This document shows, piece by piece, positions 44,383-46,812 of a stretch of 64,000 nucleotides of DNA (its first letter is position 1; every line of letters begins with the position of its first letter). The position numbers were made by a program, and so were the translations under genes. The notes below the pieces were generated by a model. The model did not search any database. It had not been told where the DNA came from and saw only the letters and a program-made list of their open reading frames with translations. Source of the DNA: Aulosira sp. ZfuVER01 (GTDB lineage: Bacteria; Cyanobacteriota; Cyanobacteriia; Cyanobacteriales; Nostocaceae); the NCBI GenBank assembly GCA_034530615.2, contig JAVRCV020000015.1, forward strand, positions 96,001 through 160,000, given 5' to 3'.

Positions 44383-44428
44383 AGGCTGAAGGATGAAATC
44401 CAAAAATCTTATTTTCATCCTTCAGCCT
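44383..44428 (-). terminator. 16-bp inverted repeat directly after the TROVE stop codon
   Basis: aggctgaaggatgaaa / tttcatccttcagcct; no clear U-tract on the minus strand. Confidence 0.55.
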
Positions 44429-44430
44429 TT

Positions 44431-46035
44431 TTAAAGTTCACCAGTAGCTAGCATCTGGATAATGCGAGGTGTTCCAGGATCGAACCCGGCCAAATCCCAG
44501 GAAAGAGGATCTTGAGGATCTACCAAAGTAATGTTGTAAGGTGCAAGGGTAACATACACTGCCTTGGCATTGGGATTCACCTTTTGGCGGTACTGCGTTA
44601 ATGCTTGACTGGGATGCTTAGAACCAGCCCATGACTCATTATCAGTCCAAAAGCAAACTACATCTGCTTTGAACTTATTCTTAATCATCCAGTCGTAAGC
44701 TACAGAAGCATCTGTTCCACCGAAGTTTTGATTGCTAGCTTTGCGAAGTGCAGAACTAAAACTATCTTTGGCTGTAATACCTAATTCTCGAAATTCGGTA
44801 GCAAAGCCGCGAATCATGTAGTTTTGCTCTGCCTTTGCTGTTACCAGTGCCATTGTAGTGGCGATTTCGCAGCAGCTTAAACCTACTGAATCAACTACAC
44901 CCCAAGACATTGAGCCAGAAACATCTACAGCGTGCATGAAAACTTTGCCTGTGGGTTGCACCATATCAAAAGATAGTTCAACCGCCTTTTCTAGGATGTG
45001 TACGATTCGGGGGACTGGTTCCCAAGTCTTCTGGCTGCGTCCTAATTTGCCACCAGATTGATAAGTCTTGAGAGCTTTCAAAACATCAATCGGATGGATG
45101 CGACCTTTGCGCAGATGTTCTTTGTTGTTGAGAACTCCTTCTACTCGCAGAATATTGGCACTTTCATCAGCGCGTAGTACCCCTAATTCGGTTAAAGAGC
45201 CAAGGTTACGCAGCATTGCACCAATTGGCATTTCCTGAAATAGTAATTGCCAAGCTTGTTTATCCATCTTACCCACAGGTGCAGCCATTTCATGAGTTAG
45301 GCGTCCTTGTGCGATCGCAGTATGGGTTTCGCTAGGATTGCGCTTGAGCCACTCATACCACCAAATCTGCGCCAATGCATCTGTTGGGATATCTGCTGGC
45401 AAATCTTCCCAACCTTTAACAACCCACTCAAATAATTCGCGGTGAGTTTCTGTAGGTGGTTTGACATGGAACAACCGCAATGCATCTCGGTGAGAGAAGC
45501 CTTGACGCTGTTGATATTTCAAAAGTTGATAAGCCAAACCTTTGACATCTTCCTGCGAAAGCCAAGTTTTTCCAGCTTCGCGCACCACCTTACCAAATCC
45601 CCGCAGCGATTTGGTATAGTTCAGCCATTCGTAGAAGTGGCTACCAGTGCGGACAACTTGCCCAAAGATTTCACCAAATGCCTTTTTGGCTTCTGCTGTT
45701 TCACCCATCGATAGCAGCACTAAAGCCAAGATAGGCGCACTATTGTTGATGGCGCGTCCATCGCTAGCATAGAGAATTTCCTCCGCAACACGCCCCGGAT
45801 TTTCCGCCACAGCTTGTTTGATAACTGCAACAAAATCTTCAGTTAATTCCTGCTTTCCCGCGTAGTAAGTGCTTTTTGCTGTGCCAATCAATAAGCAACG
45901 GCGCAGCATTTTCCAAATACCCGCATCAAACATATACCCGCCGGAACGTCCTTTAATCATTTCTGCTTCCCGTCCGGGGATAGGCTGATTTTGTGGTGTA
46001 TTTGTCTTCTTTTTAGTGAAGAAATTGTAATTCAT
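44431..46035 (-). CDS. rsr: Ro60/Rsr ortholog (TROVE plus vWA domains)
   Basis: LLKYQQRQGFSHRDALRLFHVKP, MLRNLG, RIHPIDVL; vWA DVSGSM, GGTD, TDNESW. Confidence 0.92.
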   Translation of the reverse strand: MNYNFFTKKKTNTPQNQPIPGREAEMIKGRSGGYMFDAGIWKMLRRCLLIGTAKSTYYAGKQELTEDFVAVIKQAVAENPGRVAEEILYASDGRAINNSAPILALVLLSMGETAEAKKAFGEIFGQVVRTGSHFYEWLNYTKSLRGFGKVVREAGKTWLSQEDVKGLAYQLLKYQQRQGFSHRDALRLFHVKPPTETHRELFEWVVKGWEDLPADIPTDALAQIWWYEWLKRNPSETHTAIAQGRLTHEMAAPVGKMDKQAWQLLFQEMPIGAMLRNLGSLTELGVLRADESANILRVEGVLNNKEHLRKGRIHPIDVLKALKTYQSGGKLGRSQKTWEPVPRIVHILEKAVELSFDMVQPTGKVFMHAVDVSGSMSWGVVDSVGLSCCEIATTMALVTAKAEQNYMIRGFATEFRELGITAKDSFSSALRKASNQNFGGTDASVAYDWMIKNKFKADVVCFWTDNESWAGSKHPSQALTQYRQKVNPNAKAVYVTLAPYNITLVDPQDPLSWDLAGFDPGTPRIIQMLATGEL

Positions 46036-46043
46036 GACTTCAT

Positions 46044-46063
46044 CTCCCGGCCCTTGCGGGCAA
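46044..46063 (-). promoter_or_regulatory. GCAA hairpin abutting the rsr ribosome-binding site
   Basis: TT-GCCC-GCAA-GGGC-CG-GGAG-N8-ATG; 16-mer identical to 46693-46708. Confidence 0.7.
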
Positions 46064-46072
46064 AAATGAAAG

Positions 46073-46198
46073 GTGGCAGGGCAGGACTTGAACCTGCGAC
46101 ATCCGGCTTAAAAGGCGATAACCCTAATTCGTCGGCCTTTGCAGGCAAGGGGTGAACAAGGATGTTTTCGGAGCTCTACCGACTGAGCTACCTGCCAC
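46073..46198 (-). ncRNA. tRNA-like Y RNA candidate, unit 4 (no encoded CCA)
   Basis: Acceptor GTGGCAGG/CCTGCCAC, D arm GCTC-AGTCGGTA-GAGC, T arm GCAGG-TTCAAGT-CCTGC, 69-nt arm in place of the anticodon arm. Confidence 0.85.
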
Positions 46199-46276
46199 AT
46201 GAAAAGTTATGAGTTGTGAGCTATAAGTGCTGAGTTTGGAATTTTTAACTCAGTACTCAGCACTTAGTACTGATTT

Positions 46277-46403
46277 TGGTGTAGTGGGGCGGGAGTCGAA
46301 CCCGCGATGCTCGTCTTGCAAACGATAACCCTCAATTCTTCGGCCTTTGCAGGCAAGGGGTGAATAAGGATATTAAGCGCCTTACCACTTGGCTACCCAC
46401 CAC
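46277..46403 (-). ncRNA. tRNA-like Y RNA candidate, unit 3
   Basis: Acceptor GTGGTGGG/CCCACTAC then ACCA; D arm GCC-AAGTGGTAA-GGC; T arm GCGGG-TTCGACT-CCCGC; expanded central arm. Confidence 0.85.
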
Positions 46404-46453
46404 ATAACAATTCAAAATTCAAAATGCAAAATTCAAAATTCAAAATTAGATTT

Positions 46454-46579
46454 TGGGTGGCGGGGCGGGATTTGAACCCGCGACCTCTCGAACCCAAATC
46501 GATAACCCTAATTCGTCGGCCTTTGCAGGCAAGGGGTGAATAAGGATGTTTAGCGCTCTACCACTGAGCTACCCACCAC
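46454..46579 (-). ncRNA. tRNA-like Y RNA candidate, unit 2
   Basis: Acceptor GTGGTGGG/CCCGCCAC then CCA; D arm GCTC-AGTGGTA-GAGC; T arm GCGGG-TTCAAAT-CCCGC; expanded central arm. Confidence 0.85.
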
Positions 46580-46615
46580 ATAACAATTCAAAATTCAAAA
46601 TGCAAAATTAGGTTT

Positions 46616-46741
46616 TGGTGTAGCGAAGCAGGATTTGCATCTGCATCTCCAGAAGTGAAATCAAGGGGCATTTGCGATAACCCTCGATACATCGGCCCTT
46701 GCGGGCAAGTTGGGCGCTCTGGTATTTGAGCTATCCGCTAC
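46616..46741 (-). ncRNA. tRNA-like Y RNA candidate, unit 1 (divergent)
   Basis: Acceptor GTAGCGGA/TTCGCTAC then ACCA; D arm GCTC-AAATACCA-GAGC; atypical T arm GCAGA-TGCAAAT-CCTGC; shares the GCAA hairpin and AGGGTTATCG. Confidence 0.75.
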
Positions 46742-46783
46742 GGCTGAAAGCTTACTCTTTTTGGAAGATTGACTTGTATTATT

Positions 46784-46812
46784 AATGTAGTATGCGTATT
46801 ACTAGATGTCAA
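46784..46812 (-). promoter_or_regulatory. Sigma70-type promoter for the RNA array and rsr
   Basis: TTGACA (46807-46812), 17 nt, TACATT (46784-46789). Confidence 0.75.

Follow-up and report, generated by a model that had tools for sequence, protein, structure and literature searches.

A conserved hairpin at the start of rsr, the gene for the Ro60 orthologue Rsr, suggests that Ro60 shuts off its own production when it outnumbers its partner RNAs. The hairpin is a real and conserved feature of the rsr start. It was analysed in the window (the whole 64,000-nucleotide stretch of Aulosira sp. ZfuVER01 DNA) and in the leaders of related genes.

Five copies of one hairpin in the rsr region

The 16-nt hairpin sequence has five copies, all on the minus strand: one in each of four tRNA-shaped Y RNAs and one against the Shine-Dalgarno sequence of rsr. 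TTGCCCGCAAGGGCCG is found in the rsr leader (46048-46063) and identically in RNA unit 1 (46693-46708), and TTGCCTGCAAAGGCCG in RNA units 4, 3 and 2 (46133-46148, 46341-46356 and 46517-46532, respectively). These positions agree exactly with those given in a sequence-only reading of the window, which had also described a C-G versus U-A change at the pair closing the GCAA loop; the sequence of the copies bears this change out. Exact matches to the pattern YTTGCCYGCAARGGCCG in the 8.0-Mb genome are confined to these five sites, and with up to two mismatches the pattern has nine genome matches, compared with three for the reversed control. The five copies are not a chance occurrence. A one-mismatch site on contig C51 is without Y-RNA context.

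The leader copy (46048-46063, minus strand) is a Ro60-type helix and a candidate Rsr operator, with a 4-bp stem, a GCAA loop, a bulged C at 46049 and a U-G pair. On its 3' side follow the Shine-Dalgarno GGAG (46047-46044, minus strand), eight further nucleotides and the rsr ATG (46035-46033). Sequence and position profiles identify the Shine-Dalgarno and place its first G where the Y RNAs have an A after GGCCG. A predicted extended leader stem (46038-46071, minus strand, -14.5 kcal/mol) pairs the Shine-Dalgarno and the spacer with a U-rich stretch after RNA unit 4. No Rfam family matched the rsr leader.

The Rsr protein

The rsr gene (44431-46035, minus strand) encodes a 534-residue Ro60 orthologue containing TROVE and vWA domains (Pfam PF05731 and PF25045, above cut-off). 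Among solved structures it is closest to D. radiodurans Rsr, human Ro60 and Xenopus Ro60, with E-values of 8e-77 for PDB 2nvo and 4e-72 for human Ro60. His-190, as counted on the alignment, corresponds to His-187 of human Ro60, the histidine that contacts Y RNA (PMC4030889). The TROVE ring, the vWA domain and the Y-RNA contact histidine by which a Ro60/Rsr protein is recognised are thus all present; the score against the NCBIfam Rsr equivalog was 328 bits, under its cut-off of 900. A perfect 16-bp inverted repeat (44383-44428) lies immediately 3' of the rsr stop codon and is likely a terminator or a stabilising stem.

The upstream Y RNAs have a predicted tRNA layout

The four RNA units, each 124-127 nt long, share a tRNA layout with an 8-bp acceptor stem, a D arm, a long arm that replaces the anticodon arm, a variable arm and a T arm, and the hairpin caps the long arm in each of them. 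Unit 1 (46616-46741, minus strand) has the 8-bp acceptor stem, the D arm, the Ro60-type helix (46693-46708) replacing the anticodon arm, a degenerate T loop and an encoded ACCA. Unit 2 (46456-46579, minus strand; helix 46517-46532), likewise a tRNA-ordered Y RNA, has no encoded CCA in register. The tRNA-ordered unit 3 (46277-46403, minus strand; helix 46341-46356) encodes ACCA and scores 37.7 bits against the Rfam tRNA model, with a 64-nt insert in the anticodon arm. Unit 4 (46072-46198, minus strand; helix 46133-46148) is CCA-less and its 3' end abuts the leader stem. All four have a D arm, a T arm and the Ro60 motif and lie on the same strand as rsr within 1 kb of the gene, as expected of YrlA RNAs. 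By their predicted pairing they do not show the permuted YrlA order, in which the RNA ends in the Ro60 stem and the acceptor stem is closed by a loop, and they score 24 bits against the YrlA model RF02553 (cut-off 69).

Cyanobacterial arrays have been read in the permuted, canonical YrlA order spanning two units (Chen 2014, PMC4201824); for Nostoc, Calothrix, Anabaena and Cyanothece, Table S1 of that paper gives putative YrlAs whose ends lie 103-1320 nt from Ro. In contrast to RF02553 and these putative YrlAs, the four units favour a true tRNA order with free ends. The survey of this order covered 223 distinct full units, which come from 125 of 138 cyanobacterial loci. Acceptor pairing within the unit is complete (8/8) in 200 of the 223, and CCA is encoded in 77. 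Across 56 distinct adjacent unit pairs, acceptor strands pair better within units in 45, better across units in 3 and equally well in 8. Since the acceptor stems pair better within units than across them, the units, whose ends are those of the predicted pairing, are best read as tRNA-ordered Y RNAs with a loop-closed Ro60 helix. The leader hairpin would then be a copy of this Ro60-type helix.

The element had been called an RNA cap hairpin in the sequence-only reading. It is a hairpin in both the RNAs and the leader, but instead of a generic cap it is the bulged helix that holds the presumptive Ro60 site of YrlA-type RNAs (PMC4201824). The GNRA loop stressed in that reading proved not essential; leader loops are 3-5 nt long and many are non-GNRA, and this variation rules out the GNRA loop as the recognised feature.

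The spacers between the RNA units (46224-46273, 46409-46449 and 46585-46612) contain a strong inverted repeat (units 3-4) and heptamer repeats of the TTCAAAA type. In a number of other loci (L015, L016, L021, L022, L023, L034, L040, L045, L047, L143, L146 and others) a lone extra RNA unit lies just downstream of rsr, about 1630-1830 nt after the rsr start; none was seen in the window. In four of them, an acceptor stem, a Ro60 helix and a T arm are present and no clear D arm is seen. These units are described by eye only, because the D-arm pattern misses most of them. A pattern search for RNA units in four genomes was too loose (controls also matched) and missed known units; only checked matches in G091 and G158 were used.

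The leader hairpin is conserved and tied to the start codon

A total of 148 loci were collected and three partial matches were dropped; start codons were assigned in the remaining 145, of which 138 are above 60% identity. The leaders were subjected to a strict mimic test requiring four pairs, a bulged pyrimidine, a closing pair and a location 4-26 nt from the start. The sequence-only reading had called for a check of hairpin conservation before TROVE start codons, and the hairpin is indeed conserved: 67 of 78 distinct cyanobacterial leaders pass, against a mean of 1.1 and a maximum of 3 for dinucleotide shuffles, although these counts overstate independence because close Nostoc kin make up many of the rows. 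Passes also include the deepest cyanobacterial rows (66-72% identity; L053, L054, L058 and L066). Among the 11 leaders that fail, eight have the hairpin in place with one mismatch, as judged by eye, and the others are L050, L051 and L052. The L050 leader contains neither the hairpin nor a clear Shine-Dalgarno. In L051 and L052 a 59-codon ORF lies between the array and rsr, and the hairpin remains at the start of that ORF. When the same test was applied to the ORF starts of the Aulosira genome, 7 of 4811 passed, rsr included. The other six are without close likeness to the motif, and a wider Rsr regulon in this genome is not supported.

In 56 of 71 leader/last-unit combinations, 12 nt separate the last G of the hairpin from the start codon (range 6-15 nt). 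The last Y RNA helix in the same combinations lies 44-1452 nt from the start, as found with a loose unit pattern that may count a few false units (within 2 kb, L058 has none). In G091 several ORFs intervene before the nearest RNA unit found, which is 5.4 kb upstream, yet the leader hairpin is in place. The hairpin is also intact in G011 (C1, 5310890-5313339), in which rsr is in two pieces about 860 nt apart. A copy of the putative primary RNA site thus stands at the gene's own ribosome-binding site and is conserved in position (67/78 leaders; 6-15 nt), as in an operator. The 5' arm of the 4-bp leader core pairs better with its own 3' arm than with the strand of the last RNA in 41 of 54 informative loci, equally well in 13 and worse in none. 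This preference for its own strand (41:0), together with the fixed distance to the start codon, argues against the arm being the 3' strand of a last canonical Y RNA.

Predicted folding and covariation

The core hairpin pairs with a probability of at least 0.97 even in the 801-nt predicted precursor, in which the unpaired probability of the Shine-Dalgarno is 0.01-0.4. Opening the ribosome footprint from -16 to +12 at rsr is predicted to cost 13.4 kcal/mol, a value reached by 1% of 400 sampled ORF starts (taken as the first ATG, which is imprecise); the median cost is 11.8 for 90 distinct leaders and 5.8 for the sampled ORF starts. The stability of the leader alone is unremarkable (z -1.57), with 14 of 200 shuffles equally stable.

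Covariation of the core was assessed in 30 of the 39 distinct hairpins, those with a 4-nt loop. Here 97% of cells pair, and the closing pair is C-G in 19, U-A in 7 and U-G in 4. Seven two-sided cells occur at the closing pair, a number matched by none of 500 shuffles; within cyanobacteria covariation is found only at this pair, and the structure slid by +1 scores higher (0.208 versus 0.183). UUGCC, the bulge register and the U-G pair are present in all 39 hairpins, across cyanobacterial Rsr of 66-100% identity. Pairing in the outer stem that buries the Shine-Dalgarno amounts to 78%, with two-sided changes in 13 cells (3 of 500 shuffles); several lineages lack this stem.

The leader hairpin resembles the Ro60 site of Y RNAs

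The Ro60 helix of metazoan Y RNAs and of D. radiodurans Yrn1 and Yrn2 has in common with the leader hairpin a short helix and a bulged pyrimidine followed by a G (PMC4201824; PMC4030889). The presumptive Ro60-binding motif of YrlA and YrlB RNAs is GNCGAAN0-1G, and in the YrlA-II alignment the Calothrix, Stanieria and Gloeocapsa RNAs begin with the motif strand seen in the 3' arm of the hairpin (Chen 2014, PMC4201824). The leader motif strand is the same as that of the cyanobacterial putative YrlAs and adjoins a Ro60 gene whose product keeps the contact histidine. In the window the bulged base is a C followed by a G, and the leader reads GCCGG in place of the full motif. Because the helix and the bulge are present but the full GNCGAA motif is absent, and Rsr binding is predicted from these features, the leader hairpin is called a mimic here and not a proven site. 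The likeness of the helix nevertheless bears on the regulator. The earlier suggestion that either free Rsr or a partner would bind the hairpin can be narrowed, since a helix with the presumptive Ro60 site of YrlA-type RNAs points to Rsr itself and not to an unnamed partner.

The leader hairpin has its own distinctions. It lies on an mRNA, whereas the Y RNA helix lies on a non-coding RNA; it is closed by a 3-5-nt loop, whereas the Ro60 helix of Y RNAs is formed by the two ends of the RNA; and it lacks the internal loop, the upper stem and the GGUUAUC element of Y RNAs, and the base after the motif is usually G, not A. Of the 39 distinct leader hairpins, 23 have a bulged C and 16 a bulged U, whereas U is found in 4 of 223 RNA units; the base after the motif G is G in 34 of the 39 leader hairpins versus A in 216 of the 223 units. 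Loss of the bulged C disrupts Ro60 binding in human Y RNAs (PMC4030889), and the frequent bulge U therefore counts against Rsr binding. A G after the motif's G is found in other natural Y RNAs too; M. smegmatis YrlA, which co-precipitates with Rsr, also has a G after the bulge-G (PMC4201824). The bulge U and the G-for-A change in leaders could reflect relaxed selection or mark the weaker site that a titration circuit requires. D. radiodurans Rsr protects the analogous nucleotides G7, G8, C9, G11 and A12 (PMC4201824). The counterpart of A12 in the window leader is the first G of the Shine-Dalgarno, so that bound Rsr would overlap the ribosome site. The RNAs listed by Chen 2014 stop short of the leader hairpin, which is unmentioned in the covered portions of the main text and supplement (PMC4201824).

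Mimics outside cyanobacteria

The mimic has a patchy distribution among actinobacterial and phage Rsr clades. In Nonomuraea (L151) it precedes rsr and follows a last Y RNA that is complete; in Streptomyces phage Phredrick (L158) it stands at rsr though two ORFs separate rsr from the RNAs. Among leaders collected with these two as queries, 11 of 39 metagenomic (shuffles 0.3; 28 without) and 21 of 28 viral leaders (shuffles 0.1) pass, fractions that are biased upward because the queries were chosen for carrying the mimic. With the mimic-less Bxz1 as query, 2 of 18 Bxz1-like phage leaders pass and 16 do not. None of 7 distant Rsr from the same phylum has the mimic, and neither do the four classical YrlA-type loci tested (L153, L154, L155 and L159), in which the RNAs follow rsr. 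In the distant loci L059-L064, also from this phylum, the Y RNAs are in canonical order and different hairpins lie at the Shine-Dalgarno or cover it; in L063 the 3' strand of the last RNA could, as judged by eye, pair alternatively with the Shine-Dalgarno region.

In seven actinobacterial-type loci (L151, L160, L162, L164, L165, L172 and L174) the leader motif GGGUCG is that of the locus's own RNAs, whereas most Streptomyces phages have GGGCCG in the leader and GGGUCG in most of their RNAs. In L151, L162, L164, L165, L172 and L174 a separate mimic lies downstream of a 3' strand that belongs to the last RNA itself, as found in a search without chance control. In 59 distinct cores across lineages, which were selected for pairing, two further pairs are changed on both sides; the two-sided changes in other Rsr clades are G-C to A-U and C-G to U-A. 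A FastTree of 105 Rsr proteins was built, including 26 of the 145 phylum loci, with 10 near-duplicates left out and 6 short rows dropped. The mimic is carried by 40 of the 105 in several separate, well-supported clades, with 14 changes, at least 12 of them forced; on this tree, which is in effect unrooted, repeated gain is not separable from loss.

A motif-first scan of viral contigs gave 30 matches, none with rsr within 2 kb and most inside coding sequence, and these were treated as chance. No cyanobacterial-type rsr was found in the viral contigs. In L274 and L287 a hairpin of the leader pattern, probably there by chance, precedes the Shine-Dalgarno and ATG of a 385-aa phage ORF named capsid-like by eye. 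One metagenomic Rsr clade (L178, L188-L190, L196-L200, L204-L207 and L215) has a common CACTCGAC just before the Shine-Dalgarno, without the mimic, which could be another regulatory element.

The predicted array promoter carries a TrcR-like box

The predicted promoter of the array (46776-46812, minus strand) has a -35 element TTGACA (46812-46807) and a -10 element TACATT (46789-46784). Overlapping the -10 element is a TrcR-like box (46776-46793, minus strand) that resembles the footprinted TrcR site of the Anabaena trcR promoter (PMC10272220; PMC8421152), where the arrangement relative to the -10 is the same (PMC10272220). Of 122 distinct array promoters, 103 contain the box core TA[AC]TACA, for which the expectation is 0.025 per region. 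With such a box at its promoter, the Y RNA-rsr operon probably belongs to the TrcR translational-stress regulon and is probably induced by translational stress. RtcR makes the corresponding link in Salmonella.

A proposed model of Rsr autoregulation and its alternatives

Translational autoregulation by RNA mimicry is exemplified by the operators of ribosomal proteins L1, S8, S15 and L20 and of thrS; ribosomal proteins are matched to rRNA via rRNA-mimicking operators. CsrA and CsrB exemplify the titration of an RNA-binding protein by a sink RNA. By analogy with the mimicry operators, the primary site of Rsr would be copied at its own ribosome-binding site and the primary RNAs would form a higher-affinity sink; the protein would differ in being Ro60/Rsr, and the sink in being a co-transcribed Y RNA array.

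On balance we consider it likely, though well short of certain, that free Rsr binds the leader helix and represses rsr translation while the Y RNAs titrate Rsr away. A single transcript would carry the four tRNA-shaped Y RNAs and then rsr, each Y RNA displaying a putative Ro60-binding helix and the mRNA presenting a fifth, stripped-down and slightly degenerate copy against the rsr Shine-Dalgarno. New Rsr would go to the Y RNAs first, the leader presumably having the lower affinity. Surplus Rsr would settle on the leader copy, cover the start of the Shine-Dalgarno and keep the stem that buries it shut. The outcome would be less rsr translation, with Rsr matched to its RNAs. In 10 RNA runs 4-5% of the sequence words were found, and four of these runs gave only short contigs of relatives; one such contig spans the last unit, the leader and the rsr start, which is not proof of a transcript.

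Rsr may instead bind the leader and activate the mRNA or alter its fate, through PNPase recruitment, protection of a new 5' end or opening of the outer stem, which seems unlikely but deserves weight. Y RNA helices tether Rsr to PNPase, and D. radiodurans Y RNAs need Rsr for stability (PMC4201824). Moreover, the 3' end of unit 4 lies at the leader stem, so that an mRNA released by tRNA-type 3' processing would begin with the hairpin. However, the hairpin keeps a tight distance to the start codon even where the mRNA 5' end would be distant, which fits an action on initiation. Activation would be in keeping with the opening of the Y RNA stem by Ro60 on binding (PMC12135203), but the outer stem that it needs is missing in several lineages. 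It is improbable that the hairpin is a relic of a duplicated RNA unit, kept as an Rsr-independent translation brake or a 5' stabilising stem. A generic stem need not keep UUGCC, the bulge register and the U-G pair (39/39) across Rsr of 66-100% identity, and lineage-matched sequence reappears in separate Rsr clades, even though arrays expand by tandem duplication, the leader differs from the RNA consensus at two positions, the bulge and the base after it, and in the predicted fold the leader buries the Shine-Dalgarno by itself.

A role in maturation, with the 5' arm serving as the 3' strand of a last canonical-order (YrlB-like) Y RNA from unit 4 or the hairpin as a cut site for array release, is quite improbable. 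It could draw on the canonical order of Chen 2014, on the shared precursor upstream of rsr from which M. smegmatis YrlA and YrlB derive (PMC4201824), and on the spacing of about 65 nt between the hairpin and the last helix in many Nostocales. Against this stand the 41:0 outcome of own-strand pairing and a hairpin that tracks the start codon and not the array. In addition, acceptor stems pair better within units in 45 of the 56 adjacent pairs and worse in 3, and the last RNA of L151, L162, L164, L165, L172 and L174 has its own 3' strand upstream of the separate mimic (in the search without chance control). That another protein recognising the same helix, such as an effector of the Rsr particle, is the regulator appears very improbable. 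The helix is retained in the leader without the A of the GNCGA motif, and Rsr binding in cyanobacteria is itself predicted; the helix is, however, the recognised Ro60 site, and the 30 motif-first viral matches, none next to rsr and most in coding sequence, indicate that no second gene family travels along in that set.

Implications of a possible repression by Rsr

Ro60, a human autoantigen, is a ring that serves RNA quality control and is gated by Y RNAs. Y-RNA-free Rsr has activities of its own (PMC4201824), and the mimic would explain how cells and phages could avoid this form. The 16-nt operator would also be a minimal natural ligand for probing the binding needs of Rsr. A full-text literature search (listings and abstract openings) gave no report of Ro60/Rsr autoregulation, although reviews may hold an earlier mention, and the term 'autoregul' is absent from the searched passages of 10.1101/312249 and PMC12135203. 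Neither TROVE nor Ro60 occurs as a term in the main text of a 2026 survey of cyanobacterial RNA structures, whose supplement may already list the hairpin (PMC12873609). In the searched literature Ro60 has no part in regulating its own mRNA.

More tentatively, Ro60/Rsr may be a sequence-specific translational repressor whose Y-RNA-mimic operators were repeatedly gained or retained by bacteria and phages, where they would set the Rsr:Y RNA stoichiometry. In cyanobacteria the promoter would place this circuit under TrcR, with Rsr made only when translational stress induces intact tRNA-shaped Y RNAs. Rsr could also control genes beyond rsr, because the operator can be captured by another gene, as in L051 and L052. 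The 59-codon ORF of these two loci, for which no match was found in the Aulosira genome, lies 206 nt upstream of rsr, has a hydrophobic N-terminus and has taken over both the hairpin and the Shine-Dalgarno.
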